Shown here: piece by piece, positions 17 through 13,852 of the stretch
How the letters are laid out: the number at the start of each line of letters is the position of its first letter
Position numbering within the stretch: position 1 is the first letter of the stretch
DNA from: Mycobacterium tuberculosis H37Rv
GTDB lineage: Bacteria > Actinomycetota > Actinomycetes > Mycobacteriales > Mycobacteriaceae
Assembly (NCBI RefSeq): GCF_000195955.2
Contig: NC_000962.3
Span: forward strand, 2,970,001 to 3,002,000
DNA length: 32,000 nt
Direction of reading: 5' to 3'
Position numbers and translations under genes: made by a program
The notes under the pieces: model-generated
Told to the model about the DNA's origin: nothing
Database searches by the model: none
Seen by the model: only the letters and a program-made list of their open reading frames with translations

Positions 17-62
17 GTGTTCGAGCAGGTCAGGCCTGGTTTTTACCGGGCCTTCGCCGTTT

Positions 63-83: not shown

Positions 84-122
84 GTGCCGCCGCTGGGTGC
101 GCCCCACGGAGGAGTTTGCTAA

Positions 123-554
123 ATGACCACCACGCCCCGACAACCCCTGTTCTGCGCCCACGCCGACACCAACGGCGACCCGGGCCGCTGCGCCTGCGGC
201 CAGCAGCTCGCCGACGTCGGCCCGGCCACCCCGCCACCGCCCTGGTGCGAACCGGGCACCGAACCCATCTGGGAGCAGCTCACCGAACGATACGGCGGCG
301 TCACAATCTGCCAGTGGACACGATATTTTCCGGCCGGCGACCCGGTGGCTGCCGACGTGTGGATCGCCGCCGACGATCGTGTCGTTGACGGCCGGGTGCT
401 GCGCACCCAACCGGCGATTCACTACACGGAACCGCCCGTGTTGGGGATCGGCCCGGCGGCGGCCCGCCGGCTGGCCGCTGAGCTGCTCAACGCCGCCGAC
501 ACCCTCGACGACGGCCGCCGGCAGCTAGACGACCTCGGCGAACACCGGCGGTGA
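123..554 (+). CDS. Rv2645: Hypothetical protein, first gene inside attL (143 aa)
   Basis: ATG ORF with GGAG 9 nt upstream. Its stop overlaps the GTG of the next gene (GTGA). The N-terminus (LFCAHADTNGDPGRCAC) has a paralogous remnant at 11041-11334. Confidence 0.75.
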   Translation: MTTTPRQPLFCAHADTNGDPGRCACGQQLADVGPATPPPPWCEPGTEPIWEQLTERYGGVTICQWTRYFPAGDPVAADVWIAADDRVVDGRVLRTQPAIHYTEPPVLGIGPAAARRLAAELLNAADTLDDGRRQLDDLGEHRR

Positions 555-1549
555 ACACCGCGACCCGGGTCCGGCTGGCCCGCAAACGCGCCGACCGGCT
601 CAATCTGAAACTAATCAAGAACGGCCACCACTTCAGGTTGCGTGACGCCGACGAGATCACGCTGGCGGTCGGGCACCTAGGGGTGGTGGAAGCCTTCCTG
701 GCGGCGGCCAAGTCGCAAAACAAGCCGCCCGGTCCGCCGCCGAGCCTCCACGCCCCGCCATCCTGGCGGCGCGACATCGACGACTACCTGCTCAACCTGA
801 ACGCCGCCGGTCAACGCCCAGCGACGATCCGGCTACGCAAGACGGTGCTGTGCGCAGCCGCCCACGGCCTCGGCCGCCCACCCGCCGACGTCACCGCCGA
901 ACACCTCCTGGACTGGCTAGGCAAACAGCAGCACCTCTCCCCAGAGGGCCGCAAAACCTATCGCAGCACGTTGCGGGGCTTCTTCGTGTGGGCCTACGAA
1001 ATGGACCGGGTGCGCGACTATGTCGCAGACTCCCTGCCTAAGGTGCGCTGCCCGAAACAGCCGCCCCGCCCGGCCGGCGACGACGTCTGGCAAGCGGCGC
1101 TGGCCAAGGCCGACCGTCGAATCGAGCTGATGATCCGCCTAGCCGGTGAGGCCGGGCTGCGACGCGCCGAAGCCGCCCAGGCGCACACCGGCGACTTGAT
1201 GGACGGCGGGCTTCTCCTCGTTCACGGCAAAGGTGGTAAACGCCGTATTGTGCCGATCAGCGACTACTTGGCCGCGCTCATCCGCGACACCCCGCACGGC
1301 TACCTGTTCCCCAACGGCACCGGCGGCCACCTCACCGCCGAACACGTGGGAAAACTCGTCTCCCGGGCATTACCCGGTGACGCGACCATGCACACCCTGC
1401 GGCACCGATACGCCACCCGCGCCTACCGCGGCTCCCACAACTTGCGAGCTGTACAACAACTTCTCGGTCACGCCTCGATCGTGACAACAGAACGCTACAC
1501 AGCGCTGTGCGACGACGAGGTGCGCGCCGCAGCAGCAGCCGCATGGTGA
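551..1549 (+). CDS. Rv2646: Tyrosine recombinase / phage integrase family protein (332 aa)
   Basis: Catalytic signature present: RLAGEAGLRRAE (Arg), HTLRHRYATRAY (H-x-x-R), LLGHASIVTTERYT (His/Tyr). A SAM-like N-terminal core-binding region is also present. Confidence 0.9.
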   Translation: MNTATRVRLARKRADRLNLKLIKNGHHFRLRDADEITLAVGHLGVVEAFLAAAKSQNKPPGPPPSLHAPPSWRRDIDDYLLNLNAAGQRPATIRLRKTVLCAAAHGLGRPPADVTAEHLLDWLGKQQHLSPEGRKTYRSTLRGFFVWAYEMDRVRDYVADSLPKVRCPKQPPRPAGDDVWQAALAKADRRIELMIRLAGEAGLRRAEAAQAHTGDLMDGGLLLVHGKGGKRRIVPISDYLAALIRDTPHGYLFPNGTGGHLTAEHVGKLVSRALPGDATMHTLRHRYATRAYRGSHNLRAVQQLLGHASIVTTERYTALCDDEVRAAAAAAW

Positions 1550-1562
1550 GTCGCCCTGGCGT

Positions 1563-2027
1563 TTGCTGCAGCCGATCGGCGTCACCCCCGACAGGCGGCT
1601 CGTATTCGGCCAGCGGCGGCTCGAGGCTGCACGGCTGCTCGGATGGGAGCGCATCCCGGTGCACGTGTGCCACACGATCGCCGACGTGGTCGACCGGGCC
1701 AAAGCCGAACGCTCCGAAAACACGCTTCGCAAGGATTTCACCCCCTCGGAGCTGCTCGCCGCTGGTCGCCGGATCGCCGAGCTGGAACGGCCGAAAGCCA
1801 AACAGCGGCAACGCGAAGGCGGCGACCATGGCCGCCAGGCTCGATATTCTGGCTTAGGCTCCATGGAGCCTAAGCCAGAATCAGAGCGCGATGCCCACAA
1901 AGCCGACACTGCCATCAGCGAAGCCCTCGGCATCTCCCGCGGCCACTACCAGCGGCTCAAACGAATCGACAACGCAACCCGCAGCGAAGCTGGCTACCGG
2001 GATGGTTTAAACGGTTGGAGCGGCTGA
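1563..2027 (+). CDS. Rv2647: ParB-like nuclease/partition-family domain protein, apparently 5'-truncated
   Basis: LLQPIGV...GQRRLEAARLLGWERIPV and the ELERPKAKQRQREGG motifs are typical of ParB/Srx-fold proteins. Similarity starts abruptly at the TTG, 14 nt after the integrase stop. The usual N-terminal strand is absent. The reference start (GTG at 1659, from memory) would cut the conserved motif. Confidence 0.6.
   Translation: MLQPIGVTPDRRLVFGQRRLEAARLLGWERIPVHVCHTIADVVDRAKAERSENTLRKDFTPSELLAAGRRIAELERPKAKQRQREGGDHGRQARYSGLGSMEPKPESERDAHKADTAISEALGISRGHYQRLKRIDNATRSEAGYRDGLNGWSG
1846..1881. repeat. 36-bp perfect palindrome ATTCTGGCTTAGGCTCCATGGAGCCTAAGCCAGAAT
   Basis: Checked base by base; the sequence equals its own reverse complement and is centred on CCATGG. 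It lies in-frame (12 codons, SGLGSMEPKPES) in the linker of the ParB-like ORF. Confidence 0.95.
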
Positions 2028-2108
2028 CCGCCGGTGCCCGGGATGGGCCCCGGCGGCAACTTGTCCAACGGGCGACGCTCACGTCCACGCTTGCGCAGCT
2101 CATCTTCG

Positions 2109-2136
2109 TGAACCGCCCCGGCATGTCCGGAGACTC
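2109..2136. repeat. IS6110 left terminal inverted repeat
   Basis: 28 bp, matching the reverse complement of 3436-3463 at 25 of 28 positions. Confidence 0.95.
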
Positions 2137-2159
2137 CAGTTCTTGGAAAGGATGGGGTC

Positions 2160-2486
2160 ATGTCAGGTGGTTCATCGAGGAGGTACCCGCCGGAGCTGCG
2201 TGAGCGGGCGGTGCGGATGGTCGCAGAGATCCGCGGTCAGCACGATTCGGAGTGGGCAGCGATCAGTGAGGTCGCCCGTCTACTTGGTGTTGGCTGCGCG
2301 GAGACGGTGCGTAAGTGGGTGCGCCAGGCGCAGGTCGATGCCGGCGCACGGCCCGGGACCACGACCGAAGAATCCGCTGAGCTGAAGCGCTTGCGGCGGG
2401 ACAACGCCGAATTGCGAAGGGCGAACGCGATTTTAAAGACCGCGTCGGCTTTCTTCGCGGCCGAGCTCGACCGGCCAGCACGCTAA
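2160..2486 (+). CDS. Rv2648: IS6110 transposase OrfA (HTH, 108 aa)
   Basis: ATG ORF with GGATGGGG upstream. IS3-family OrfA with HTH and leucine-zipper-like region (ELKRLRRDNAELRRANAILK). Confidence 0.95.
   Translation: MSGGSSRRYPPELRERAVRMVAEIRGQHDSEWAAISEVARLLGVGCAETVRKWVRQAQVDAGARPGTTTEESAELKRLRRDNAELRRANAILKTASAFFAAELDRPAR
2432..2438 (+). promoter_or_regulatory. Programmed -1 ribosomal frameshift heptamer TTTAAAG (orfA to orfB)
   Basis: The zero frame reads ATT TTA AAG. A shift gives TTT AAA in the orfB frame, which is open from here to 3421. This is standard IS3-family behaviour. Confidence 0.8.
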
Positions 2487-3421
2487 TTACCCGGTTCATC
2501 GCCGATCATCAGGGCCACCGCGAGGGCCCCGATGGTTTGCGGTGGGGTGTCGAGTCGATCTGCACACAGCTGACCGAGCTGGGTGTGCCGATCGCCCCAT
2601 CGACCTACTACGACCACATCAACCGGGAGCCCAGCCGCCGCGAGCTGCGCGATGGCGAACTCAAGGAGCACATCAGCCGCGTCCACGCCGCCAACTACGG
2701 TGTTTACGGTGCCCGCAAAGTGTGGCTAACCCTGAACCGTGAGGGCATCGAGGTGGCCAGATGCACCGTCGAACGGCTGATGACCAAACTCGGCCTGTCC
2801 GGGACCACCCGCGGCAAAGCCCGCAGGACCACGATCGCTGATCCGGCCACAGCCCGTCCCGCCGATCTCGTCCAGCGCCGCTTCGGACCACCAGCACCTA
2901 ACCGGCTGTGGGTAGCAGACCTCACCTATGTGTCGACCTGGGCAGGGTTCGCCTACGTGGCCTTTGTCACCGACGCCTACGCTCGCAGGATCCTGGGCTG
3001 GCGGGTCGCTTCCACGATGGCCACCTCCATGGTCCTCGACGCGATCGAGCAAGCCATCTGGACCCGCCAACAAGAAGGCGTACTCGACCTGAAAGACGTT
3101 ATCCACCATACGGATAGGGGATCTCAGTACACATCGATCCGGTTCAGCGAGCGGCTCGCCGAGGCAGGCATCCAACCGTCGGTCGGAGCGGTCGGAAGCT
3201 CCTATGACAATGCACTAGCCGAGACGATCAACGGCCTATACAAGACCGAGCTGATCAAACCCGGCAAGCCCTGGCGGTCCATCGAGGATGTCGAGTTGGC
3301 CACCGCGCGCTGGGTCGACTGGTTCAACCATCGCCGCCTCTACCAGTACTGCGGCGACGTCCCGCCGGTCGAACTCGAGGCTGCCTACTACGCTCAACGC
3401 CAGAGACCAGCCGCCGGCTGA
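2435..3421 (+). CDS. Rv2649: IS6110 transposase OrfB (DDE/rve integrase core), expressed as an OrfAB fusion by -1 frameshift
   Basis: DDE-type core: WVADLTYV, HHTDRGSQYTS, SYDNALAETINGLYKTE. The frame is open from the slippery site. The first in-frame Met in the ORF track is at 2537. Confidence 0.9.
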   Translation, partial: KDRVGFLRGRARPASTLITRFIADHQGHREGPDGLRWGVESICTQLTELGVPIAPSTYYDHINREPSRRELRDGELKEHISRVHAANYGVYGARKVWLTLNREGIEVARCTVERLMTKLGLSGTTRGKARRTTIADPATARPADLVQRRFGPPAPNRLWVADLTYVSTWAGFAYVAFVTDAYARRILGWRVASTMATSMVLDAIEQAIWTRQQEGVLDLKDVIHHTDRGSQYTSIRFSERLAEAGIQPSVGAVGSSYDNALAETINGLYKTELIKPGKPWRSIEDVELATARWVDWFNHRRLYQYCGDVPPVELEAAYYAQRQRPAAG

Positions 3422-3435
3422 GGTCTCAGATCAGA

Positions 3436-3463
3436 GAGTCTCCGGACTCACCGGGGCGGTTCA
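3436..3463. repeat. IS6110 right terminal inverted repeat
   Basis: 28 bp, partner of 2109-2136. Confidence 0.95.
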
Positions 3464-3705
3464 TCGGCGGCCTTGCGTGCCTGCTCAGCCTGGCGGCGCC
3501 AAGCCTCATAGCGACGCCGAATCTCCCTCTCAATCGCGCGCTGCACACCCATCCGGAACTGATCCTGGACACGCTGCTGCTGCCGAACCCAACGCTCAAG
3601 CTCACGCCGGTAGTCGTTGACTGATCTCGCCACCCAAAATCACCCCTCTTGACCCTCTTGGTTCTCTTTTTGGCGGCGTGGGCGACCCGGCACCCCTAAG
3701 TCTCC

Positions 3706-3769
3706 GGGCCGTGCGGGCCGCTGGGAGCCGAAAGGTTGCTAAAGTTCTCCCTTTTTGCCCGCACGACCC
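3706..3769 (-). terminator. Possible stem-loop downstream of the capsid gene
   Basis: GGGCCGTGCGGGC (3706-3718) pairs with GCCCGCACGACCC (3757-3769) at 12 of 13 positions, with a 38-nt loop. There is no U-tract, so its function is uncertain. Confidence 0.25.
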
Positions 3770-3794
3770 GAAAAGGGCCGCCCACGCCTGGCAC

Positions 3795-5234
3795 CTACGC
3801 GGTGGTCTGCACCTTCAGCACGCGGAACGCATTGTCCACCAGCACATCAGAACCGACTCGGAACCAGCAGAAGAATCCGCGCTGTCCGGTCGGTCGGCGG
3901 TTGCCGCCGAACACGTGCGGCACCAGCTCCACCGTCGACCCGACCCGGTCGGTGATGATGAACTGCTTCCAGTCGCCAAGCACCAGCGGGTAATTGGTGG
4001 CGGTCACCGCCGCGTCCACGGTGTCCATGTTCGACACCTCCCAGATGTGTTTCCCGGCCAGCATCGGCGGGCTGGCGTGCAGCGATGGGAATTTCAGCGC
4101 CCCATTCGCGGTTTCCGCCTGGCGCAGCACGTTGATGGTGGACAAGTTCGCCGCGAACGCGCTGTTGGATTGAAAGCGCGGCGGCAACGCCGACTGCAGC
4201 GCGTAAACGTCGGCGGCTACAACGGCTTCCGTCCCCGCGCCGGTGACGGTGTAGTCCGCGGTGCCGGTCAGTGCGGAGACGAATCCGGTGGGCTCGCCGT
4301 TGCCGGAGCCGCTGACGAACGCCGCCGCCTGCAGCTGCTCAACCGAATCCGCTAGGACGCGGCCCACCTCTGCGACGAATCCGGCGGCGTCACCCTCAAT
4401 CTCGAGACTGAACGGAATCCAGCAGGAGCCACGGTAGCTCGGCACCGCCGGCTGGGCCAGCGTTGGCGAATCGTCGGACACCTCCTGGGCTTCGGAGTAC
4501 CAATGAGCCTCGGCGCCTTCGGAGGTCACGCCCCGCCAAACCTCGGAGGTCGTTTGCACCACCCTCGCCACCTGCCGGATCGGATTCGTTGAACCATCAC
4601 CCGACAGCAGAATCGCCGGATCCAGCGCCGCCGGGATCAAAAACCCGCCGGCGGTGTCCACCAAGCCCATTGCTCGCTGCTCGGCGGCCACCGCGGCCGC
4701 CTCACGCCACGCGGCCGCTTCCCGGTCGGTCCAGGTCGTGTGCCCCGCAACAGGGTTCGAAACCCTCTTGACGAACGCCCCCAGGTAGTCGCGGTTGCCG
4801 GTGGCCGCCAGCCAGCGCTGCGCCCACGACGTCGACTGCGGCGGCCCGGTGCGGCACAAGGTTTCCGCGGCTTCCGCCGCCCGCGACGACATCAGGCCAT
4901 CGCGCACACAAACGTCCAGTGTGCGAAACGCGATGTCGCGCAACGAGTTGCCCGGCGGCGCGTCGCCGTCGTCGCCGCCGGTGGGAGCACCGGGCACCAC
5001 CCTCAGCTCACCGGCCCGGCAGCGGCGCAGCGCCTCCTCGGCTTCGCGGCCGCGGCGGCGCTGCTCCGCCCGCAGTTCCTCGGCGTGGCGTGTCAGCGCC
5101 TGAAAACGTTGCGCCACATCACCGGTCAGGTCGCCCTCGACGGAGTCGAGGAGCTGTTTTGCCGCGGAACGGGTTTCGTCGAGGCTGAGCTGTTTGATGT
5201 CGCCATCGTCAGCGAAATGTTGTTCATTAGTCAT
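3795..5234 (-). CDS. Rv2650c: HK97-fold major capsid protein with N-terminal delta/scaffold-like coiled coil (479 aa)
   Basis: The ORF follows the prohead protease gene by 7 nt. Length, N-terminal coiled-coil region and synteny are typical of HK97-like capsids. I recall the annotation as a phiRv2 phage protein. Confidence 0.85.
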   Translation of the reverse strand: MTNEQHFADDGDIKQLSLDETRSAAKQLLDSVEGDLTGDVAQRFQALTRHAEELRAEQRRRGREAEEALRRCRAGELRVVPGAPTGGDDGDAPPGNSLRDIAFRTLDVCVRDGLMSSRAAEAAETLCRTGPPQSTSWAQRWLAATGNRDYLGAFVKRVSNPVAGHTTWTDREAAAWREAAAVAAEQRAMGLVDTAGGFLIPAALDPAILLSGDGSTNPIRQVARVVQTTSEVWRGVTSEGAEAHWYSEAQEVSDDSPTLAQPAVPSYRGSCWIPFSLEIEGDAAGFVAEVGRVLADSVEQLQAAAFVSGSGNGEPTGFVSALTGTADYTVTGAGTEAVVAADVYALQSALPPRFQSNSAFAANLSTINVLRQAETANGALKFPSLHASPPMLAGKHIWEVSNMDTVDAAVTATNYPLVLGDWKQFIITDRVGSTVELVPHVFGGNRRPTGQRGFFCWFRVGSDVLVDNAFRVLKVQTTA

Positions 5235-5241
5235 GAGAGAG

Positions 5242-5775
5242 TTACCAATCCATCAGGGCTAACCTGGCTTCGGCTAGCGAACGGGAAACGACTGCAAGCG
5301 ATTCCGCGCGCACACCGGCGATCTGCGCGCCCAGATAGGCCGGAACGCCGGTCAAGGAGACCTCCAACAGCGCCGCCTCGACCCGCACGATCACATCCCC
5401 TTCCCGGCGGTCCCGGATCGGCCGGAAACCCACCGAAAACGCGTCCACCACACCAGCTTTCACATTCGCCAGGGCCTCGTCGCCGTCCGGGGTGTTCGCA
5501 AGCTCGAACGCCCCGAACAAGCCGTGAGGCTCCTCACGCAGCTCGACGGCCCGGCCAACCGGGTAGCGGGTTCGAGCGTCGTGGGAGACCAGCAGCTTCA
5601 CCTTGTGGCCGCGCTCAGCGATGGAGCGCCGAAAAGCGCCAGGAGCGAACATTTCCCGGAACTCGCCGTCGAGGTCGCGGACGGTGGTCACCTCGCCATA
5701 AGGCACGATGACGCCGTACACGGTGCGGCCCTCACCAGGCCGCAGCTCGGCCGTGCGGAAAAGGATGCTACTCAA
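5242..5775 (-). CDS. Rv2651c: HK97-family prohead maturation protease
   Basis: FRTAELR...GRTVYGVIVPYGE...LVSHD...FSVGF resembles the S78/U35 prohead protease family. Start is uncertain: TTG at 5775 (177 aa) or TTG at 5802 (186 aa). Confidence 0.8.
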   Translation of the reverse strand: MSSILFRTAELRPGEGRTVYGVIVPYGEVTTVRDLDGEFREMFAPGAFRRSIAERGHKVKLLVSHDARTRYPVGRAVELREEPHGLFGAFELANTPDGDEALANVKAGVVDAFSVGFRPIRDRREGDVIVRVEAALLEVSLTGVPAYLGAQIAGVRAESLAVVSRSLAEARLALMDW

Positions 5776-5927
5776 AATTCGGCCACCGCCTAGCAGACGC
5801 AAGAAACGCGCGGAATCGCTTGTGGCGCATGGCGGCCGCTATCCGGGTTCCAGCCGCCCCGCGGCGACTGCCCGGCGTCGGCGGATGCCGAGATGCCAAA
5901 CTCGATTGTATCACACACAAAAGGTCA

Positions 5928-6554
5928 TCACCGGTCTGGGGCGAACGGGTTGAACTCGTCGTCGTCGGGGTCCCCCGCCGCCGCCAGCACAGCAGCCAAA
6001 TTCGCCTCAGCGCTTGGCGTGCACCCCAATTCGCGCGCGAGCACCAAAACGTCCCTCGTCGCGGCCCGGGCCGCGGCCACGGCAGGATGCACCGTCACCC
6101 GTCGGCTGCGGGCGTTCGTCGCGATGAAACCCTGTTCACGGTAGGCTGTTACAGCCTGCATGAGCTGATCCCAGGCGACGCAGAAGGAGGTCAGCACCCC
6201 AAGGTCGGACTCCTTCAGCAGGTTTAATGCCGCAAGCTCGGGAACGACGCGCCCCCACATGTCTTTAGCGCCTGGCGGCAACCAATCCGGGCATTCCGGC
6301 GCAACACGCTCGAACGCCGCCGGTGGTGTAACCCGCCGGCCGCCAGAATCACGGCCCGGCGAGCGGCCGCCGAGGAGTTTCAACTGCGCCGGCGCCGGCG
6401 CGGGACCACGCCTACCCATTTTCAACACCACCCTCCTCTTTCCGGGTTTCGGGTCGCGAATGCCATGATGCCAAAAAACGCCCCATAAAACTTGAGCGCG
6501 CACACGCTCTCCCACCGTGGCGGTGTCCGGTCGGGCGGTTGCTGGCGATGGCAA
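5928..6554 (-). CDS. Rv2652c: Phage terminase small subunit, P27 family
   Basis: GRRGPAPAPAQLKLLGG...PECPDWLPPGAKDMW...L..LNLL...D...L..FCVAWD matches the P27-type TerS pattern. Homology begins at Met46 (ATG at 6419), which has AGAGGAGGG upstream, so the real start is probably 6419 rather than 6554. Confidence 0.8.
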   Translation of the reverse strand: MPSPATARPDTATVGERVRAQVLWGVFWHHGIRDPKPGKRRVVLKMGRRGPAPAPAQLKLLGGRSPGRDSGGRRVTPPAAFERVAPECPDWLPPGAKDMWGRVVPELAALNLLKESDLGVLTSFCVAWDQLMQAVTAYREQGFIATNARSRRVTVHPAVAAARAATRDVLVLARELGCTPSAEANLAAVLAAAGDPDDDEFNPFAPDR

Positions 6555-6585
6555 CCCACCCCCCCTACCTGCGGGTTTCGGGTTT

Positions 6586-6909
6586 TCACTGTTTGCTGTC
6601 GGGTTCGTCGGGGAAGTGATACGGATGCCAGCCGAGCTTCATCCCCGCCTCAAGCCGGCGCTGCTCATCGTCGAGATGCATCGACAACAGCGCCAGTTCG
6701 GCTGTGTCGTCGTCGATTTCGTGTGATGTCGCCACCATCTCGGCGTACGCTCGGCGGATAGCCTCGAGGTCGCGCTGCCGTTGGGCGCGGCGCTGCTCGG
6801 CGGACGGAACGTCGGCCGGCCAACCATGTTGCCGCCCAACGCGATTCCGACGCGGGGCGTTGAGCCCTGCGGCGATGGCTGGCTGGCGTTTAGTGCGCTT
6901 GTGGGTCAA
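6586..6909 (-). CDS. Rv2653c: Hypothetical prophage protein (107 aa, TTG start)
   Basis: TTG at 6909 with AAGGAG 8 nt upstream. From memory it has been reported as the toxin-like partner of Rv2654c. No motif I can assign. Confidence 0.6.
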   Translation of the reverse strand: MTHKRTKRQPAIAAGLNAPRRNRVGRQHGWPADVPSAEQRRAQRQRDLEAIRRAYAEMVATSHEIDDDTAELALLSMHLDDEQRRLEAGMKLGWHPYHFPDEPDSKQ

Positions 6910-6988
6910 TGATGGGCTCCTTTCTCCCTGGAAAATGATGTGATCGACGGTGTTCCGGGTGTCCGACAGTCGGGTTCTCTCGGCGGGC

Positions 6989-7234
6989 TCACGGCGGATC
7001 ACCCCGGTCGACGGCCGCCGCCGCGGCGGCCGTCGCGGCGAACAAAACGGCCGCGACGCCGTGCGACTCCGCCACAGCGCGGACCAACGCTCGCGCAAGC
7101 TCGACGGCCGCGGTCCGCCATGCGCCCGCGGCGTCGCCGGCCAGCGCGGCGGCCGAAGCCTCGACTGGCGGGCCGCCGACAAGCTCGTCCGCGGCGGCCA
7201 GCAACGTCCGAGCAGCCAACGCGTGGCCGCTCAT
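6989..7234 (-). CDS. Rv2654c: Ala-rich small prophage protein (81 aa), the TB7.7 antigen
   Basis: The sequence MSGHALAARTLLAAADELVGG... matches Rv2654c as I remember it. Its ATG overlaps the stop of the upstream gene (ATGA at 7231-7234). Confidence 0.75.
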   Translation of the reverse strand: MSGHALAARTLLAAADELVGGPPVEASAAALAGDAAGAWRTAAVELARALVRAVAESHGVAAVLFAATAAAAAAVDRGDPP

Positions 7235-8658
7235 CGGGCGCCGTCCCGAGCGCTAGCCGCCGCTCGACCTCGGCAGGGCCGGCATTTGCCGGCGGCCTTG
7301 GCCTCAGTACTGAGGAGCTTGTTGGGGCATCCCGGCCCGGAGCACAGCGGCGCGTCGCCGTTGGGGTGCCCGTTGGGCGCCGGCGGCTCGTACGGCAAGT
7401 CGCCCGCCTCCGGGAGATCGGTTGCATCGGTTGCGCCGGTTGCATCACCGGGATCGCCAACCGGCGGTGAAACCGCGGAAACCGCGGAAACCGATAAATC
7501 TCGTTCCTCGGGGGTTTCGTCGTCGGCAGAGAGATACCGGGACCACGCATCCTCGAACTGGGTCCGCGAATACCCTTTGTAGGGTGGTTCGCCACCACTG
7601 TGCTGGAACTTCGGCCCGATGCCGTATCTGCCGAGCCGGGTCGCGAGGCCGCGCGCGTCGAGCGGGTCGCCGCGGCGGATGGAGCCCCACGGTCCCTCCT
7701 CCATCCGGTTCAGTCCGGTCAGGATGTCGCTGGTGCGCATCCGGTCCCGGTCGCTGAAGACTCGACGGATATCCCGCAGCAGCAGCACGCCTATGCTGGG
7801 CTTGGCTCCTCGATTTGCGGTTGCATCCGTTTCTGCGGTTGCACGGGCGGTTTTGGGCCAGTGCCCGCCCGCGGTGTCAGCAACCGCAACCAGGGACTCC
7901 CAGACGTCGGCGCGCCGGTCGGTCACCCCGTCCGGCATCGCCGGCCAACCGCTTTCCAGCGGGTTAATGGCGGCCGCCCAGTTCGCCAACCGGTCGTGCA
8001 GCTTCTCGGCCTCGGGGCCGTTGACGCGGGGGCGCCACGGCTCCACGGGTTCGGTTGGTGCCCTCCTGCGCATCCTCACCACGATCGACCGAGACATGAT
8101 GGTGTCGGGCAGGTCGTCGAGGCCGGCCAAGGCGACCGCACAGTACGCTGGCAGTTCCTCGGTCTCAACGATCTTGCCGCGGATGACGCAGCGGCCCGCG
8201 ACGGCTCCCTTGCGGTGGCCGGCGTTGATCACGCCGCGAATTTCCTCGTGTTCTTTAGCTTTCGGGCCAAACAGGGTGTCACACTCGTCGTACAGGACGG
8301 TCGGCCGCCCGACCGGATCGGCCACCCGACGGAACAGGTAGGCCGGTGTGCAGTTGATGGCATGCACCGGCCGGGGCACTAGCGGTTCCGTGACTTCGAG
8401 TGCGCGGCTCTTGCCAGAGCCGGGTTCCGGTGACAAAAAAGCGATTCGGGGCGTTGAGTCCCACGCCTCCATAAACCAGCAATGCGCAATCCAGAGGGTG
8501 TGCGCGATCAGTTCATGGTCGCTTGGATAGACTACGAACCGCCGCAAGAATGCCCTAATGTCGTCGAGCAATTCGGCGCCGACCGGCGGCATCGGCTGGC
8601 CGTCCTCGTCACACCAGATCGGGTCGGGATAGTCACGGCCGTAGGGGATGTCAGCCAT
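7231..8658 (-). CDS. Rv2655c: DUF3631-type P-loop protein, putative replication (primase/helicase-like) protein with C-terminal zinc ribbon (475 aa)
   Basis: Walker A SPEPGSGKSRALE. C-terminal CSGPGC...CRPC. The ATG at 8658 lies 1 nt after the upstream stop. The longer ORF (to 8916) overlaps Rv2656c and was rejected. Confidence 0.8.
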   Translation of the reverse strand: MADIPYGRDYPDPIWCDEDGQPMPPVGAELLDDIRAFLRRFVVYPSDHELIAHTLWIAHCWFMEAWDSTPRIAFLSPEPGSGKSRALEVTEPLVPRPVHAINCTPAYLFRRVADPVGRPTVLYDECDTLFGPKAKEHEEIRGVINAGHRKGAVAGRCVIRGKIVETEELPAYCAVALAGLDDLPDTIMSRSIVVRMRRRAPTEPVEPWRPRVNGPEAEKLHDRLANWAAAINPLESGWPAMPDGVTDRRADVWESLVAVADTAGGHWPKTARATAETDATANRGAKPSIGVLLLRDIRRVFSDRDRMRTSDILTGLNRMEEGPWGSIRRGDPLDARGLATRLGRYGIGPKFQHSGGEPPYKGYSRTQFEDAWSRYLSADDETPEERDLSVSAVSAVSPPVGDPGDATGATDATDLPEAGDLPYEPPAPNGHPNGDAPLCSGPGCPNKLLSTEAKAAGKCRPCRGRAAASARDGAR

Positions 8659-8659
8659 C

Positions 8660-9052
8660 TCAGACCACCACCCGCCGAATGTAGGCGTCACGCCGACGCT
8701 GGATCTCCCGAGAGACCGCCGGCCAGTCGGCGGCGGCGGATACGTCACGTGATGCCTCGGCCGACGCGGCCTGGCACGTCTCCACCCGGAGTGCCCAATG
8801 CCGAGCAGCGTCGCAGATCGCGGCCCATTTGACCGGGTCGGTGTCGTCGAGGTCGCACCACGCCGGGGTGCCGGCCATCGGCCATTCCACGGCGGCGGCC
8901 AGGGTCGGTGCGACATACTCGTGCACCGACCACCACGACACGGCGCGGGACGCGGTAGGATCGGTGCTAGACGGTGTGGCGACTGTCGCGGGTGCCCGGT
9001 CCTCTGTGGCCGGGCATCGTCGCGTCGGCGGCGACCCGCCGACGGCGGTCAT
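8660..9052 (-). CDS. Rv2656c: Hypothetical prophage protein (DUF2742-like, 130 aa)
   Basis: Tightly packed in the operon, with a 4-nt overlap with the upstream gene. The WWSVHEYVAPTL...GTPAWCDLDDTDPVKWAA pattern recalls a mycobacterial prophage family. Confidence 0.65.
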   Translation of the reverse strand: MTAVGGSPPTRRCPATEDRAPATVATPSSTDPTASRAVSWWSVHEYVAPTLAAAVEWPMAGTPAWCDLDDTDPVKWAAICDAARHWALRVETCQAASAEASRDVSAAADWPAVSREIQRRRDAYIRRVVV

Positions 9053-9309
9053 GCGGCACCACCGAACGGGTGCATGGCGCCGTCGACCTCATCGCGGCGC
9101 AGACGGACGAGGCGGGTGCCGGAGCGGTATCCGCGTAGGCGGCCGTCGGCGATCATCTGGCGGACCGTGCGGTCGGTGACCGCTAGATATTCGGCGGCCT
9201 CACTGATCGTGATGTACCGCCGTGACAACGGGGGAGCGTCTGCCATGCCGGGCCTTTCGGTCTCGTGAGAGACCGTCCACCCGAGACTCGGCGACGGGAA
9301 CGCGCACAT
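9049..9309 (-). CDS. Rv2657c: Excisionase/AlpA-like helix-turn-helix DNA-binding protein (86 aa)
   Basis: YITISEAAEYLAVTDRTVRQMIADGRLRGYRSGTRLVRLRRDEVD is a classic MerR/Xis-type winged HTH. An internal Met (MADAPPL) is an alternative start. Confidence 0.8.
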   Translation of the reverse strand: MCAFPSPSLGWTVSHETERPGMADAPPLSRRYITISEAAEYLAVTDRTVRQMIADGRLRGYRSGTRLVRLRRDEVDGAMHPFGGAA

Positions 9310-9325
9310 GCGCGCACCGGAAAAT

Positions 9326-9691
9326 TTACCCGCCTAGCTGGCTCAAGCGCAAGCATAATGCGCTGAACGGAATTACGTGTCGCGCCTCTGCTATTGATGG
9401 ATCGTCAGCGTCGGGGATGGTCGACGTTCTCAGCTCGTGAAGCTTCGCCCCGAAACCGTCGAGGATCGCCGCGGCGGTCATCTCGGATATCGGCGCATAC
9501 TTTCGGCATGCCCGGCATTCGAGTTTCCACTCGATATGGCGGCCCCACTGTGTTTCGGTGAAGCGGGTGTTCGACCGCATCTGTATGTGCCCGCCGGCGG
9601 GTCGTTCGTCGTCGATCCAGGCGATGATGAGCGCTCCCGGTTCGTCGTCGCAGTTGCACATAACTACGTACTTAACCGCATCGGCCATCAT
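9326..9691 (-). CDS. Rv2658c: Cys-rich hypothetical prophage protein (about 120 aa)
   Basis: The ATGATG start overlaps the integrase TGA by 1 nt (9691), implying translational coupling. It has CNC...CRAC cysteine pairs. The 293-aa upstream extension in the ORF track is antisense-like low complexity inside the integrase gene. Confidence 0.6.
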   Translation of the reverse strand: MMADAVKYVVMCNCDDEPGALIIAWIDDERPAGGHIQMRSNTRFTETQWGRHIEWKLECRACRKYAPISEMTAAAILDGFGAKLHELRTSTIPDADDPSIAEARHVIPFSALCLRLSQLGG

Positions 9692-10818
9692 CACATCTCC
9701 TGGTTCTCGGCCAGTTTGCTTAACAGTGCGGCGATTTCGCGGTCCCGGCCCTTGGCGGCGTGCTGGTAGCGGAGTGCGGCGCCGGCTGTGCTGTGTCCTA
9801 GCCGCTGCATCAGTTCGGCCAGTGTGGCGCCGGTGGATGCAGCCAACACGGCGCCGGAGTGTCGAAGGTCGTGCACCCGTAAGTCTGGTCGGCCGGCGGC
9901 TTTTCGGGCCTTGTAGAACATGCGGTACAGCGCCGAGGGTGCTAGGTGACGGTTGGGGTCGTTGACCGATGGGAACAGCAGGGACTCCCGGCCGGGGTTG
10001 ACGTGTTTGTGAAGGTGGTCTTCGATGGCGGGTATCAGATGTGGCGGGATACTTATGTCGCGCACTCCCGCATCGCTTTTCGGTGTCGTCACCTTGAAGC
10101 CTTCGCCCACCCGAACGACAGCCCGCCGCACCCGCGCAACCTCGCCGTGCAGGTCGATGTCTTTGCGGCGTAATTCGGTCAGCTCGCCGTAGCGCATGGC
10201 CAGCCATGCCGCCATCAGCACGAACGCCTGGTAGGGGTCGGGCATGGCTTTGGTGATGGTTTCCAGCTCGTCGAGGGTGGCGGGCCTGATCTTGTGGACG
10301 CGGCGGGCGGTGGACGCGCCTGAGATGCGGCAGGGGTTGGAGTCGATCAGGTCGTCGGCCAAGGCGGTCTGCATGATTGCGCGCAGCAAGCTGTAGGAGT
10401 GTGCCCGCATGGTCGGTGTGCCCACGGCGGTGGTGGCGTACCAGCGGCGCACGGCGGCCGGGGTGATGTCGCGTAGGTCGGTGTCAGCGAAGGTGGCCAG
10501 GATGTGGTTGTCCAGCAGTTTGCGATAGTGGGCGCGGGTGCGGTCCTTGATTCCACGCTGCTTCAGCCATCCTTCGGCGTACTCACCGAATGGGGCTCCG
10601 GGGCGGTCTTCCTGACCCGATGCCGGGGACCATAGTTGTCGGTCGATTTCGCGGCGGCGGTCGGTGAGCCATGCTTCGGCGTCGATCTTGGCGTTGAAGG
10701 TTTTGGGGGCGATGTACACGCGGCCGTCGGGGCCGGTGTAGCTGGCTTGCCAGCGGCCGGAGTTGAACTGTCGGATGCGACCGAATTTGCGTCTCTGACG
10801 CTTGCCGGTTTGCGTCAC
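9691..10818 (-). CDS. Rv2659c: Tyrosine integrase with N-terminal arm-binding (AP2-like) domain (375 aa, GTG start)
   Basis: GRWQASYTGPDGRVY...DAEAWL N-terminal domain. Catalytic RYGELTELRRKD, HDLRHSGA, LGHSTAGAALRYQH. It lies next to attR and to the arm-type repeat. Confidence 0.92.
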   Translation of the reverse strand: MTQTGKRQRRKFGRIRQFNSGRWQASYTGPDGRVYIAPKTFNAKIDAEAWLTDRRREIDRQLWSPASGQEDRPGAPFGEYAEGWLKQRGIKDRTRAHYRKLLDNHILATFADTDLRDITPAAVRRWYATTAVGTPTMRAHSYSLLRAIMQTALADDLIDSNPCRISGASTARRVHKIRPATLDELETITKAMPDPYQAFVLMAAWLAMRYGELTELRRKDIDLHGEVARVRRAVVRVGEGFKVTTPKSDAGVRDISIPPHLIPAIEDHLHKHVNPGRESLLFPSVNDPNRHLAPSALYRMFYKARKAAGRPDLRVHDLRHSGAVLAASTGATLAELMQRLGHSTAGAALRYQHAAKGRDREIAALLSKLAENQEM

Positions 10819-10832
10819 TGTCGTCCCCTGTC

Positions 10833-10853
10833 CCGCGCAATAAACGCGCAATA
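10833..10853 (+). promoter_or_regulatory. Putative integrase arm-type site pair (P arm), 15 bp upstream of the integrase start
   Basis: Exact copy of 63-83 (CCGCGCAATAAACGCGCAATA). Confidence 0.55.
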
Positions 10854-10962
10854 AGAGACTACATCAGATGCCGCTTGCTTCCGCACGCTTCCGGGGGTAC
10901 TGTTGTCTATGTCGCCTGGTCAGAGGCTTTCTGTACAGGTCAGACAGTATCCCACCGGCCCA

Positions 10963-11190
10963 CTAGTGAAACTGGTTCAATCCCAGTATCGCGCACCACG
11001 ATTGACCTGCGGTTTCATCCACAAAATCTGGGCTGCGTGAACTAAATGTGAACTGACTCGGTGCAACCACCGAAAGGTTCCTCTGTTCCGTGCCCACGCC
11101 GACACCGACGGTGACCCCACCAGATGCGCCTGCCGCCCGCTGGCTAGCCTGGCCTGTTGCTGCAAGCGCCTGGTCGACGCCCGCTATCAC
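10963..11190 (-). CDS. Rv2660c: Reference-annotated 75-aa ORF (vaccine antigen Rv2660c); coding status doubtful
   Basis: The ORF exists and its sequence (VIAGVDQALAATGQ...AILGLNQFH) matches Rv2660c as I recall it. However, its last 12 codons are antisense to the attR tRNA fragment. It also lies antisense to a plus-strand frame with higher third-position G/C. Confidence 0.3.
   Translation of the reverse strand: MIAGVDQALAATGQASQRAAGASGGVTVGVGVGTEQRNLSVVAPSQFTFSSRSPDFVDETAGQSWCAILGLNQFH
10971..10998 (+). other. attR: displaced 3' fragment of the tRNA (T-arm, acceptor 3' strand, CCA)
   Basis: ACTGG-TTCAATC-CCAGT-ATCGCGC-A-CCA. No complementary 5' acceptor strand (GCGCGAT) occurs in the roughly 75 nt upstream, so this is not a full tRNA. 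The last 16 nt are identical to 1-16. Confidence 0.8.
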
Positions 11191-11334
11191 GCTGTTGTCG
11201 CGTCCACCGAACTCACCGAGGCACGCCGCACCCGCGCAACCGAGCTGACGGAGCTGATCACCACCGCGCTCGCCTTCTGCGAACGGCTGCAAACGGTCGT
11301 TGAGGGTGACCGGCGGGCTGAGGTGACCCGATGA
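11041..11334 (+). pseudogene. Start-less, frameshifted remnant paralogous to Rv2645
   Basis: An open frame of 97 codons encodes ...LFRAHADTDGDPTRCAC..., compared with Rv2645 LFCAHADTNGDPGRCAC. By eye about 32 of 36 nt are identical over the conserved block. It has no in-frame ATG/GTG/TTG until its last codons, and the GTG at 11060 is out of frame. G/C at third positions is high. Confidence 0.55.
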
Positions 11335-11576
11335 GCGGCGGCTGGCTCGCCGAGCACCTCGGCCTGTCCACAAACCGGCTCCGGCACGAACTCGCAGACC
11401 GGCTCGACGCGCACTACGGGCCACCCGCACAGAACAGGGAGCTCGCGCGGCCGAGCCTGCGGATTATCAACGAGGGCACTGATGGATGACCTGACGCGGC
11501 TCCGGCGCGAGCTTCTGGACCGATTCGACGTGCGGGACTTCACAGACTGGCCTCCAGCATCGCTGCGAGCCCTCAT
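11187..11576 (-). CDS. Rv2661c: Reference-annotated 129-aa ORF; probably a shadow ORF
   Basis: The Arg/Ser-rich product lies antisense to three translationally coupled plus-strand ORFs. Confidence 0.25.
   Translation of the reverse strand: MRARSDAGGQSVKSRTSNRSRSSRRSRVRSSISALVDNPQARPRELPVLCGWPVVRVEPVCEFVPEPVCGQAEVLGEPAAAHRVTSARRSPSTTVCSRSQKASAVVISSVSSVARVRRASVSSVDATTA
11331..11489 (+). CDS. Unannotated small ORF (52 aa) with HTH-like segment
   Basis: Its ATG overlaps the stop of the upstream frame (ATGA). Its own stop overlaps the ATG of the next ORF by 8 nt. G/C at third positions is high. WLAEHLGLSTNRLRHEL looks HTH-like. It is below the 60-aa cut-off of the ORF track. Confidence 0.45.
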   Translation: MSGGWLAEHLGLSTNRLRHELADRLDAHYGPPAQNRELARPSLRIINEGTDG

Positions 11577-11754
11577 CGCGACCTACGACCCCTGGATCGA
11601 CATGACGGCCAGCCCGCCACAGCCTGTATCGCCCGGAGGGCCTCGACTCCGACTCGTGCGATTAACCACCAACCCATCCGCGAGAGCAGCCCCTATCGGA
11701 AACGGTGGGGACTCTTCTGTTTGCGCTGGTGAGAAACAGTGCCGCCCACCGTAG
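11482..11754 (+). CDS. Rv2662: Hypothetical protein (90 aa)
   Basis: ATG ORF coupled to the preceding small ORF. No recognisable domain. Confidence 0.55.
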   Translation: MDDLTRLRRELLDRFDVRDFTDWPPASLRALIATYDPWIDMTASPPQPVSPGGPRLRLVRLTTNPSARAAPIGNGGDSSVCAGEKQCRPP

Positions 11755-11816
11755 CGGCCTGCGCGTGGCAATTGACCGACCTGACCCGAGTAGCCGCCAG
11801 TGGGCTGTAAGCCATT

Positions 11817-11850
11817 CTTTACGGCAGCCTGTTGTAAAGGTAACGTTTAC
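11817..11850. promoter_or_regulatory. Operator-like inverted repeats and -10 element upstream of the BrnT-like operon
   Basis: CTTTAC (11817-22) N11 GTAAAG (11834-39) N5 GTTTAC (11845-50). TAACGT (11841-46, fits TANNNT) ends 6 nt before the GTG at 11853, as expected for a leaderless mycobacterial transcript. Confidence 0.45.
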
Positions 11851-11852
11851 AC

Positions 11853-12086
11853 GTGGAGGTGAGGGCTAGCGCCCGCAAGCACGGCATCAACGACGACGCC
11901 ATGCTCCACGCATACCGCAACGCGCTGCGCTACGTCGAACTGGAATACCACGGCGAAGTTCAACTGCTGGTGATCGGCCCCGACCAAACCGGGCGCCTTT
12001 TAGAGCTGGTCATCCCAGCAGACGAACCACCCCGGATTATCCACGCCAACGTACTACGCCCGAAGTTCTACGACTACCTGAGGTGA
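11853..12086 (+). CDS. Rv2663: BrnT-like (COG2929-like) putative toxin (77 aa)
   Basis: ARKHGI..D...[14 protein letters not shown] and [12 protein letters not shown] align by eye with the BrnT pattern KHG..F, G....G.LL.VV, R.IS.R.A. The N-terminus is short compared with canonical BrnT. Confidence 0.5.
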
Positions 12087-12096
12087 TGAGATAAGA

Positions 12097-12351
12097 GTGA
12101 AGCACAAGACCGACATTGACGAGTGGCTCGACACGATCGAGCCCAACCCGGCCGACGCCCACGATGCCAGCCACCTGCGGCGCATCATCGCCGCGAAAGA
12201 AGCGGTCCAAACAGCCGAATCTGAGTTGCGGGCCGCAGTGAATGCTGCCCGCGCCGCCGGCGACACCTGGGCAGCCATCGGCGTCGCCCTCGGCATCACC
12301 CGCCAGGCCGCGTTCCAACGGTTCGGGCCACACAGCACAGCGAGCCCCTAA
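12097..12351 (+). CDS. Rv2664: HTH protein, putative cognate antitoxin (84 aa)
   Basis: GTG lies 10 nt after the upstream stop, with GAGGTG upstream. The C-terminal motif [24 protein letters not shown] closely parallels GASWSDIGKSMGVTKQAAQKRFVP in ClpC2 (13896-14654). Confidence 0.55.
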
Positions 12352-12435
12352 ACCGGCGCGCCTCCGCGGTGGAGTTGACGACGACCAGACAGGGCCGAAG
12401 CGGAGTCACAGCGTCTGGCCGACACACGTGGCGTC

Positions 12436-12698: not shown

Positions 12699-12980
12699 AT
12701 GATCGTCGTCCGTACGGCCGAGGCGGCCGAGCAGGCCCTGACTGAGGGCCAGCTGGTCTGCCCCCGCCGCGGATGTGGCGACACCTTGCGGCGGTGGCGA
12801 TATGGACGGCGCCGGCATGTGCGCAGCCTCGGCTCGCAGGTGATCGATGTGCGGCCCCAGCGGGTGCGTTGCCGCAGATGCGAAAGCACCCATGTGCTCC
12901 TGCCAGCGGCGCTACAGCCACGCCTAGGGCGCGGCGGCGGCGGCCAGTTACGTCCAGGGGTGTGGTGTACGGGCAGGTAA
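12699..12980 (+). CDS. Rv2665: Arg-rich zinc-ribbon protein fragment (93 aa), resembling the N-terminal domain of some actinobacterial transposase-associated proteins (DUF6431-like)
   Basis: CPRRGCG...RWRYGRRRHVR...RVRCRRCESTHVLLP is a CxxxC...CxxC ribbon followed by THVLLP. The frame degenerates into Gly/Arg-rich sequence just before the IS1081 fragment. Confidence 0.45.
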   Translation: MIVVRTAEAAEQALTEGQLVCPRRGCGDTLRRWRYGRRRHVRSLGSQVIDVRPQRVRCRRCESTHVLLPAALQPRLGRGGGGQLRPGVWCTGR

Positions 12981-12999
12981 GGCCGGTGGGCGTGTCGTA

Positions 13000-13852
13000 G
13001 CCCAGTAGTGGGCGGTCATCGCGTGATCCTTCGAAACGACCAGCAAAAGTCAATCGAAGGAAATGACGCAATGACCTCTTCTCATCTTATCGACACCGAG
13101 CAGCTTCTGGCTGACCAACTCGCACAGGCGAGCCCGGATCTGCTGCGCGGGCTGCTCTCGACGTTCATCGCCGCCTTGATGGGGGCTGAAGCCGACGCCC
13201 TGTGCGGGGCGGGCTACCGCGAACGCAGCGATGAGCGGTCCAATCAGCGCAACGGCTACCGCCACCGTGATTTCGACACCCGTGCCGCAACCATCGACGT
13301 CGCGATCCCCAAGCTGCGCCAGGGCAGCTATTTCCCGGACTGGCTGCTGCAGCGCCGCAAGCGAGCTGAACGCGCACTGACCAGCGTGGTGGCGACCTGC
13401 TACCTGCTGGGAGTATCCACTCGCCGGATGGAGCGCCTGGTCGAAACACTTGGTGTGACAAAGCTTTCCAAGTCGCAAGTGTCGATCATGGCCAAAGAGC
13501 TCGACGAAGCCGTAGAGGCGTTTCGGACCCGCCCGCTCGATGCCGGCCCGTATACCTTCCTCGCCGCCGACGCCCTGGTGCTCAAGGTGCGCGAGGCAGG
13601 CCGCGTCGTCGGGGTGCACACCTTGATCGCCACCGGCGTCAACGCCGAGGGCTACCGAGAGATCCTGGGCATCCAGGTCACCTCCGCCGAGGACGGGGCC
13701 GGCTGGCTGGCGTTCTTCCGCGACCTGGTCGCCCGCGGCCTGTCCGGGGTCGCGCTGGTCACCAGCGACGCCCACGCCGGCCTGGTGGCCGCGATCGGCG
13801 CCACCCTGCCCGCAGCGGCCTGGCAGCGCTGCAGAACCCACTACGCAGCCAA
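13000..13852 (+). mobile_element. IS1081: IS1081 (IS256 family) fragment with its 3' part deleted
   Basis: The transposase N-terminus is MTSSHLIDTEQLLADQLAQASPDLLRGL... The diagnostic primer-region sequence CGACACCGAGCAGCTTCTGGCTG is at about 13090. Homology ends near 13853. The left end is approximate and no IR was verified. Confidence 0.85.

Follow-up and report, generated by a model that had tools for sequence, protein, structure and literature searches.

Genes right of phiRv2 in Mycobacterium tuberculosis H37Rv: the probable left end of an older element in the same tRNA-Val gene

Plus-strand genes beyond the right end of phiRv2

The stretch of DNA analysed here (the window) comprises 32,000 nt of the M. 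tuberculosis H37Rv chromosome, genome positions ~2,970,001-3,002,000, and window positions are converted to genome positions by an offset of 2,970,000. It opens with the prophage phiRv2, and our subject is the block of small genes directly to the right of this prophage, at the locus where Rv2660c and Rv2661c are annotated. phiRv2 extends over window positions 1-10998 and is bounded by an exact repeat, the attachment (att) core CCAGTATCGCGCACCA, at 1-16 and 10983-10998. The right copy lies in a 3' fragment of a tRNA-Val gene (valU), which matches the end of the M. simulans tRNA-Val(GAC) at 28/28 nt. This 28-nt duplication of valU was described by Houghton et al. 2013 (PLoS One 8:e80047, PMC3861185). 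The features of the locus are listed in Table 1.

Immediately after the right core the plus strand carries an open frame. It had been pointed out in an earlier annotation made from the letters alone (hereafter the sequence-only reading) and is indeed present; its translation begins TKCELTRCNHRKVPLFRAHADTDGDPTRCAC, and 8 of its codons specify Cys. Direct reading also agrees that the frame has no usable start: in H37Rv no in-frame ATG, GTG or TTG occurs before the last few codons. The GTG that had been named as the matching codon is out of frame, as claimed, but is found at 11061-11063 rather than at 11060. A disabled start lies further upstream and owes its state to a single nucleotide, T11043. 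This nucleotide is absent in two contigs (L003 and L004) that represent at least 17 M. tuberculosis complex samples and otherwise show 1 mismatch in 3.96 kb. In the allele without T11043, GTG 11037 is in frame and opens a 98-aa protein (P0001) starting MNKCELT. The small-protein gene of H37Rv is probably a pseudogene that lost its start through a 1-nt indel and kept its domain intact. The sequence at the disabled start, GTGAACTAAATGTGAACTGA (11037-11056), contains a short tandem duplication of GTGAACT; it falls inside the small RNA (sRNA) ncRv12659 and yields three tiny overlapping open reading frames (ORFs), GTG-AAC-TAA, ATG-TGA and GTG-AAC-TGA.

Relatives of the frame were sought by an exhaustive phmmer/HMMER search of 1.84 billion representatives, and 47 proteins matched at E ≤ 1e-3. 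They make up a family of small proteins of ~70-100 aa with the consensus ...L.GAR..RA.EL.E..ADA.AFCERL..VVEGD.RA. A hidden Markov model (HMM) was built from the 37 members outside M. tuberculosis. Its sole match among the 581 open six-frame segments of the window was the plus frame 11041-11331 (E = 1.9e-26), and this match, from HMM position 6 to 72 and residue 29 to 95, spans the whole ~65-residue two-helix domain. AlphaFold2 predicts a two-helix hairpin at residues 32-97, with a predicted local distance difference test score (pLDDT) of >90 over residues 33-98, preceded by a disordered N-terminus. The ratio of nonsynonymous to synonymous substitution rates (dN/dS) of the frame against M. gastri and M. 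simulans is 0.34-0.40, and that of the frame and Rv2662 against their relatives is 0.34-0.48. Judged from its predicted product, the frame is a domain-complete member of an unannotated ~70-aa helical-hairpin family, the missing start being its sole defect. Word-indexed protein searches with the frame and with the two ORFs that follow it yielded nothing outside the M. tuberculosis complex, and many of the variants matched there were frameshift artefacts; it took the exhaustive HMMER search and the M. gastri locus to bring the relatives to light. When the region, the frame and Rv2645 were compared with 50,697 phage records by blastn/tblastn, no match was obtained.

The frame is followed by a 52-codon ORF (here ORF52) and by Rv2662. 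The ATGA overlap between the frame and ORF52 and the 8-nt overlap between ORF52 and Rv2662, both previously claimed, were confirmed. The two ORFs resemble each other (50% over 26 aa, E = 3e-4). Rv2662 matches a 62-aa ORF of M. gastri (contig L009, 8323-8511; 43% over 49 aa, E = 2e-10), and ORF52 matches its positional M. gastri homologue of 66 aa weakly (E = 0.002); the four ORFs form one tandem-paralog family. By direct reading, candidate ribosome-binding sites of the GAGG type precede both ORF52 and Rv2662. The C-terminal third of Rv2662 (11617-11754) shows codon usage of the non-coding type (-0.33 in the codon model described below), and the 62-aa M. gastri homologue has nothing that corresponds to it. 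It looks like a non-coding extension, and by this comparison of sequences the annotated stop is probably not the ancestral one. A terminator-like hairpin is found in the same tail (11691-11710). A further candidate, ORF52 as the N-terminus of an Rv2646-like integrase, had been hinted at by a repeat (D14) and was unsupported (E ~1).

Downstream lie Rv2663 and Rv2664, which match the PHROG categories 'toxin' and 'HTH DNA binding protein' (HTH, helix-turn-helix) and, with a dN/dS of 0.12-0.14, represent the best-conserved part of the gene block right of attR. The Rv2663-64 block is found with 82-88% DNA identity in M. simulans (L008 9262-9844), M. gastri (L009 8555-9085) and M. shottsii (L002 11194-11731), and its flanks differ each time. 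A conserved GTAAAG...CTTTAC inverted repeat stands upstream of it. The M. shottsii copy belongs to a prophage, where it closely follows an Rv2645 homologue. On this pattern of conservation, Rv2663-Rv2664 is a discrete, predicted mobile module that travels with phiRv2-like elements. Homology with the relatives stops just past the Rv2664 stop codon, at ~12352-12365.

The sequence-only reading had mentioned a published report of a starvation-induced plus-strand sRNA, in place of the annotated protein, at the Rv2660c locus. The paper exists and agrees (Houghton et al. 2013, PMC3861185): the ends of the sRNA, determined by rapid amplification of cDNA ends (RACE), are genome positions 2980911 and 2981083, transcription starts inside phiRv2, some reads run past the sRNA 3' end, and phiRv2-negative strains show faint read-through from the tRNA. 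In the window, Rfam RF02659 matches ncRv12659 over its full length on the plus strand with 216.7 bits (gathering score 209, E = 2e-52). In addition to being an sRNA, ncRv12659 is probably the leader of a plus-strand operon transcript.

Table 1. Features at the right end of phiRv2 and in the adjoining DNA (window positions)
Feature	Position	Strand	Remarks
Rv2645 of phiRv2, N-motif (residues 8-25) fused to 'Rv2645-core' (residues 28-125)	123-554	+	Suggested by comparison with L006
ncRv12659, starvation-induced sRNA	10911-11082	+	Starts in phiRv2, crosses attR, ends where N-motif coding begins
Rv2660c, 75 aa, component of the H56 vaccine	10963-11190	-	Most likely an antisense shadow ORF
Displaced 3' end of tRNA-Val (valU), attR of phiRv2	10971-10998	+	Core 10983-10998 shared with attL
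Disabled start, GTG AAC TAA	11037-11045	+	T11043 shifts GTG 11037 out of frame and makes a stop codon
Open frame, 97 codons plus TGA; N-terminal Cys/His motif, then complete helical-hairpin 'VVEGDxRA' domain (residues 29-95)	11041-11334	+	Profile match, codon score, AlphaFold2, dN/dS
61-nt stretch in common with the 5' end of Rv2645 (144-204)	11080-11140	+	Encodes PLF[C/R]AHADT[N/D]GDPxRCAC
Rv2661c, 129 aa	11187-11576	-	Most likely an antisense shadow ORF; Arg/Ser-rich product
ORF52, 52 codons, first of two tandem paralogs	11331-11489	+	ATGA overlap with the open frame; own candidate GAGG Shine-Dalgarno
Rv2662	11482-11754	+	First ~60 residues homologous to the M. gastri 62-aa and 66-aa ORFs
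Rv2663 (11853-12086) and Rv2664 (12097-12351) with upstream inverted repeat	11785-12365	+	Toxin-like plus HTH module

Relatives in other genomes and a proposed derivation of Rv2645

A genome scan returned six loci; M. tuberculosis itself was not among them, possibly owing to masking. The ORF homologies reported here were obtained by blastp of defined ORFs, the tblastx summaries being noisy from grouped E-values. At the left end of phiRv2-like elements the family gene comes first, in the intact relatives always so. It usually lies 100-150 bp past a tRNA (~70-150 bp past the 3' end of a tRNA or a tRNA-Val fragment at the loci named next) and on the same strand as the tRNA. It adjoins a tRNA sequence in M. 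tuberculosis, M. simulans (tRNA-Val(GAC)), M. gastri (tRNA-Arg(CCT)), contig L006 (tRNA-Arg(CCG)) and contig L010 (tRNA-Val fragment). The 4-nt (ATGA) coupling to the next gene is found in all of these, in L012 (a contig of 636 nt) and in L013/L014, where the family gene has the same position and coupling without a tRNA. The helical-hairpin family could serve as a marker for the left ends of phiRv2-like elements in mycobacteria.

Intact versions of the remnant, which the sequence-only reading had proposed to look for in other mycobacteria, were found in M. simulans and in the Logan contig L014, with the gene order conserved. In M. simulans a Gly-Cys-Val tRNA cluster is followed, after ~110 bp, by an 82-aa family member, a 92-aa Cys-rich ORF, a tyrosine integrase resembling Rv2646 (30% over 260 aa, E = 2e-28) and homologues of Rv2663/Rv2664 (88% DNA identity), after which come a minus-strand capsid-like ORF and an Rv2655c-like primase. 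The element occupies the same Gly-Cys-Val tRNA cluster as the M. tuberculosis genes, and the last 28 nt of the tRNA are identical. In L014 the same left end is followed by an integrase, a capsid protein and a protease that are 58%, 49% and 53% identical to Rv2646, Rv2650c and Rv2651c, respectively. The M. gastri locus beside tRNA-Arg(CCT) is made up of an internally deleted family gene, the ATGA-coupled 66-aa and 62-aa ORFs and the Rv2663/64 homologues, which are directly followed by host genes; no integrase is present. DNA likeness between M. tuberculosis and M. gastri is restricted to the Rv2663-64 block and the last ~100 nt of the family gene, and the small ORFs in between have diverged.

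Two of these loci show further features. L010, from a mycobacterium-like metagenome-assembled genome, carries a 34-nt tRNA-Val 3' fragment (7819-7852) that is 97% identical to window 10965-10998 and is not recognised as a tRNA. The family gene (7962-8177) starts ~110 bp after this fragment, and the surroundings include a tRNA-Leu 740 bp upstream and, downstream, a full-length IS1081-like element. This locus may be a further case of displacement or stacking. M. simulans has a second tRNA-Val (CAC), on the opposite strand just upstream of the Gly-Cys-Val cluster (L008 6779-6970, 7247-7319). Since it is flanked by an excisionase-like HTH_17 ORF, this neighbouring tRNA seems to carry an integrated element too.

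The frame right of attR had been labelled an Rv2645 paralog remnant. Its paralogy with the N-terminus of Rv2645 was borne out; the label itself was not, because the similarity is confined to 61 nt, or 18 residues. When the Rv2645 end was aligned with the attR side, a check that had been proposed earlier, significant similarity was found: window 144-204 and 11080-11140 share 80% DNA identity over 61 nt, and in pairwise BLASTP 15/18 residues are identical (E = 1e-8), the match being limited to residues 8-25 of Rv2645. The stretch encodes an accessory CxH...GD...CxC motif (the N-motif), the first Cys of which is replaced by Arg in the copy outside attR. Between the two M. tuberculosis copies the motif differs by 4 synonymous codon changes, with a dN/dS of 0.25. 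Beyond the 61 nt, the rest of Rv2645 does not align with the frame in either pairwise or family alignment, and the near-invariant columns of the Rv2645-family core (W-C...W-R...VW...D...GR...I...ARxLAAELLNAAD) are missing from the frame. Most Rv2645 homologues are without the N-motif and some hairpin-family members have it (P0051 and those of L006 and L007); it therefore does not define the Rv2645 family. It also occurs in P0036 (contig L001), an Rv2645-type fusion of 39% identity that lies next to tRNA-Val in a soil metagenome.

The L006 locus suggests how the two genes may be related. There, a motif-bearing hairpin gene is followed by an ATGA-coupled, motif-less Rv2645-core gene that is 57% identical to residues 28-125 of Rv2645 (E = 1.5e-35). 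On the simplest reading of these sequences, Rv2645 would be an in-frame deletion fusion that joined the N-motif of phiRv2's own first gene to the following gene, and the copy outside attR would be the unfused form, Rv2645 being the derived gene.

Some side observations concern phiRv2 itself. It contains two unrelated tyrosine integrases, at 551-1549 and 9691-10851. Rv2659c has no significant similarity to the Rv2646-type integrases that accompany the family gene at the left end (58% in L014, ~30% in M. simulans). Rv2645-47 and Rv2650c-59c, now parted by IS6110, may once have been separate elements. An exact 20-nt repeat, CGCGCAATAAACGCGCAATA, is located just inside both phiRv2 ends (64-83 and 10834-10853), 0 such repeats being expected by chance. 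Its copies would flank the att core in circular phiRv2 and probably correspond either to integrase arm sites or to what Houghton et al. call a 'putative repressor binding site'.

A probable older element in valU and the other readings

We consider it likely that an older phiRv2-like prophage or satellite-like element had integrated in the 3' end of valU before phiRv2 did, that its left end survives as window 10999 to ~12365, and that its real genes are those on the plus strand. The idea of an older, related element that decayed at this tRNA and was displaced to the right by phiRv2 comes from the sequence-only reading, and the intact relatives in M. simulans and L014 lend it support. So does the distribution of the stump: strains that lack phiRv2 also carry the DNA right of attR (PMC3861185), which is therefore older than phiRv2 and does not belong to it. 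Integration of the older element would have regenerated the tRNA end, so that phiRv2 could later use the same site and leave the old stump just outside its attR. What survived, all of it on the plus strand, would be the hairpin-protein gene with its Cys/His motif, ORF52 and Rv2662, which are predicted to be translationally coupled, and the Rv2663-64 module, while the old integrase, the structural genes and the old attR would have been lost. Further right, at 12946-13852, lies a fragment of an IS1081-type transposase (Rv2666) that is 84.6% identical to the full-length copy in L010; it may mark a deletion that removed the rest of the old element.

The published transcripts and the anatomy of the locus suggest how the stump may be expressed. 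Having no mapped promoter of its own, it would be transcribed by read-through, weakly from the tRNA operon in phiRv2-negative strains and, in phiRv2-positive strains, from the outward starvation-induced phiRv2 promoter at 10911. In circular phiRv2 this promoter would read across attP into Rv2645-46-47, which is the model of Houghton et al. for Rv2645-47. After stacking, it would face the equivalent operon of the old element across attR, and ncRv12659 would be a stable processed 5' piece of the read-across transcript. The abundance and starvation induction of ncRv12659 may reflect a phage promoter that was built for attP and now reads into a homologous old operon.

Several observations weigh against an older integration. 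No second copy of the tRNA end, the expected old attR, was found within 5 kb downstream in M. tuberculosis, where the best matches were at the level of shuffled sequence, or within 8 kb in M. simulans, M. gastri and L006, and the right boundary of the stump is undefined for this reason. No integrase gene is present between 10999 and 13000, and sensitive tblastn revealed no significant integrase relic in 11300-11860; there is only a 12-nt exact match spanning the stop codon of the M. simulans integrase. The place of the Cys-rich ORF and integrase of M. simulans is taken by two small ORFs in M. tuberculosis and M. gastri, indicating that the stump is not simply the M. simulans layout with a deletion. 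The family members of L007 and L013 are not next to a tRNA. Pfam, PHROGs and NCBIfam hold no family for the frame or for Rv2645, ORF52 and Rv2662, and a Foldseek search of the PDB with the frame gave only generic helical hairpins (E ≥ 1). The coding role of the three M. tuberculosis plus-strand ORFs is a prediction. Either of the two alleles at T11043 may be the ancestral one.

Other readings of the same genes were weighed. One, which we regard as unlikely, holds that the cassette of the family gene, ORF52, Rv2662, Rv2663 and Rv2664 is a functional integrase-less hitchhiker beside tRNA genes. It would be kept by its toxin-like module and switched on only when the outward, repressor-controlled, starvation-induced promoter of a phiRv2-type newcomer reads across attR. 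If this were true, ORF52 and Rv2662, together with the first gene in T11043-less strains, would be real starvation-induced proteins of the 'Rv2660c locus'.

A second reading takes the ~1.3-kb unit of the family gene, the two small ORFs and Rv2663-64 to be an undecayed and self-contained, integrase-less, cis-mobilisable mini-element, moved in trans by phiRv2-like integrases and stabilised by the toxin-like module. Essentially the same integrase-less gene set does lie beside two tRNAs, tRNA-Val in M. tuberculosis and tRNA-Arg in M. gastri, with host genes directly after it in the latter, and in four species the Rv2663-64 block shows 82-88% identity that ends sharply at its borders. However, no flanking direct repeat or attR is found in either species, neither copy of the family gene is intact (that of M. 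tuberculosis lacks a start and that of M. gastri has an internal deletion), and the divergence outside Rv2663-64 is what would be expected if related prophages had decayed independently while keeping an addictive module. We consider a mini-element quite improbable.

Houghton et al. (PMC3861185) read the 61 nt in Rv2645 as a 'duplicated host sequence' that was picked up beside the att site, for example by imprecise excision, and the DNA right of attR as ordinary host DNA. We give this reading only a slim chance, although the spacing between att core and duplicate is similar at the two ends (143 nt vs 97 nt). A captured block should include the spacers between att core and motif, yet these do not align, and the likeness is limited to the coding motif. 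The bias of the differences toward synonymous changes speaks for long separate evolution under protein constraint. Moreover, the motif recurs in distant element-borne relatives (P0051, L006 and L007) and in the soil-metagenome fusion beside tRNA-Val, and the supposed host gene is a hallmark left-end gene of phiRv2-like elements. The 61-nt duplicate is better explained by the deletion fusion proposed for Rv2645 than by captured host DNA.

The older-element reading assigns the coding role to the plus strand, and thereby touches the annotation of Rv2660c and Rv2661c. Both lie antisense to the plus frames, as the sequence-only reading had stated and the coordinates confirm. It had also given the last 12 codons of Rv2660c as antisense to the tRNA fragment; the antisense relation holds, and the count is ~9-10 of the last 11 codons (WCAILGLNQ...). 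Coding signal on the two strands, a comparison suggested earlier, was assessed with a codon log-likelihood model trained on 17 long window genes, in which true frames score 0.37±0.16 and off-frames -0.28±0.26 per codon. The scores were +0.27 for the frame (from 11080), +0.19 for ORF52, which is ambiguous, and +0.38 and -0.33 for the N- and C-terminal halves of Rv2662, against -0.09 for Rv2660c and -0.11 for Rv2661c, whose usage is not of the coding type. The codon scores thus favour the plus frames. The G+C content at third codon positions (GC3) had been put at roughly three quarters or more in all three plus-strand ORFs. This is correct for about two of the three, the values being 0.73 for the frame (0.78 from 11080), 0.81 for ORF52 and only 0.67 for Rv2662. 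Rv2661c itself has a GC3 of 0.75. Its third codon positions coincide base for base with those of the frame and of Rv2662, so that the coding strand cannot be told from GC3, from the openness of the ORFs or from block identity (76% vs 73%). For the same reason Rv2661c stays open, and equivalent antisense frames are also open in L006, L007, L008 and L010.

Published data point in the same direction. Houghton et al. 2013 (PMC3861185) found no minus-strand RNA of Rv2660c or Rv2661c in seven strains or conditions and no Rv2660c peptides by targeted mass spectrometry, reported that transcription across both genes is plus-strand, and noted that M. canettii annotations hold a plus-strand ORF here. The claimed conflict between the plus frames and the annotated genes is borne out by the codon statistics, the profile homology on the plus strand only, and this absence of minus-strand RNA and peptides; Rv2660c and Rv2661c are most likely antisense shadow ORFs of plus-strand genes. 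That Rv2660c, and possibly Rv2661c, are real minus-strand genes under some in-vivo condition and the plus frames incidental is very improbable: T-cell responses of infected people to recombinant Rv2660c, its benefit in the H56 vaccine, two spectra in bacille Calmette-Guérin (BCG) from one report (cited in PMC3861185), and the openness of both frames with the high GC3 of Rv2661c speak for it, but the codon scores are in the off-frame range, that GC3 is borrowed from plus-strand wobble positions, neither profile homology nor RNA nor targeted peptides favour the minus strand, and in phiRv2-negative strains the tRNA-antisense tail of Rv2660c would overlap a functional valU. A conserved, element-borne operon on the opposite strand strengthens the 2013 view of Rv2660c as a misannotation and names plus-strand products to seek. 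A 2024 proteogenomics study (PMC11682046) lists a novel microprotein from a small ORF, 'tORF 72,141', at the Rv2660c locus on the opposite strand, which is up in starvation; it may be ORF52, Rv2662 or another frame.

Comparison with earlier work and known systems

Most of the sequence observations made here were published in 2013. For the same locus Houghton et al. (PMC3861185) described the plus-strand start in phiRv2, the 61-nt imperfect duplicate of Rv2645, the C-terminus of Rv2660c antisense to valU, the M. canettii ORF and the lack of RNA and peptide. Their account differs in that the phage took up the duplicate from its host and the DNA beyond attR belongs to the host core, and it does not include a conserved element-borne family for the plus frame, homologues of ORF52 and Rv2662, or an earlier integration at valU. 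New here are the family identity of the frame, its intact relatives, the fusion origin proposed for Rv2645 and the start-codon polymorphism. In an incomplete search of the literature, no paper was found on an earlier valU integration or on this protein family.

Among mycobacterial prophages, the closest comparison is with phiRv1 and phiRv2 (regions of difference RD3 and RD11). The relatives of the stump in L014 and M. simulans share with phiRv2 the capsid, the protease, the DUF3631 primase and the Rv2646-type tyrosine integrase, and they have the same layout, a left-end plus-strand operon followed by minus-strand structural genes. The differences are that the M. tuberculosis stump keeps only the left-end operon and Rv2663-64, and that the first gene of phiRv2 is reduced to the N-motif in Rv2645. 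The annotated minus-strand genes resemble the antisense shadow ORFs of high-GC genomes in the wobble sharing of Rv2661c, the scarcity of antisense stops and the Arg/Ser-rich low complexity of the product; they differ in that Rv2660c became a vaccine component and is in part antisense to a tRNA.

Tandem accretion at one tRNA att site is known from the arrays of integrative and conjugative elements (ICEs) and cis-mobilisable elements (CIMEs) of Streptococcus thermophilus and from the stacked islands at enterobacterial tRNA genes. The present case differs from these in having no third att copy at the far end of the old element and in that any mobility of the stump is hypothetical. The likeness lies in the outcome: a second element enters the regenerated att site, giving the order tRNA, new element, att, old element, and the older one loses its integrase and decays. 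On the older-element reading, valU has received elements more than once in the ancestry of M. tuberculosis.

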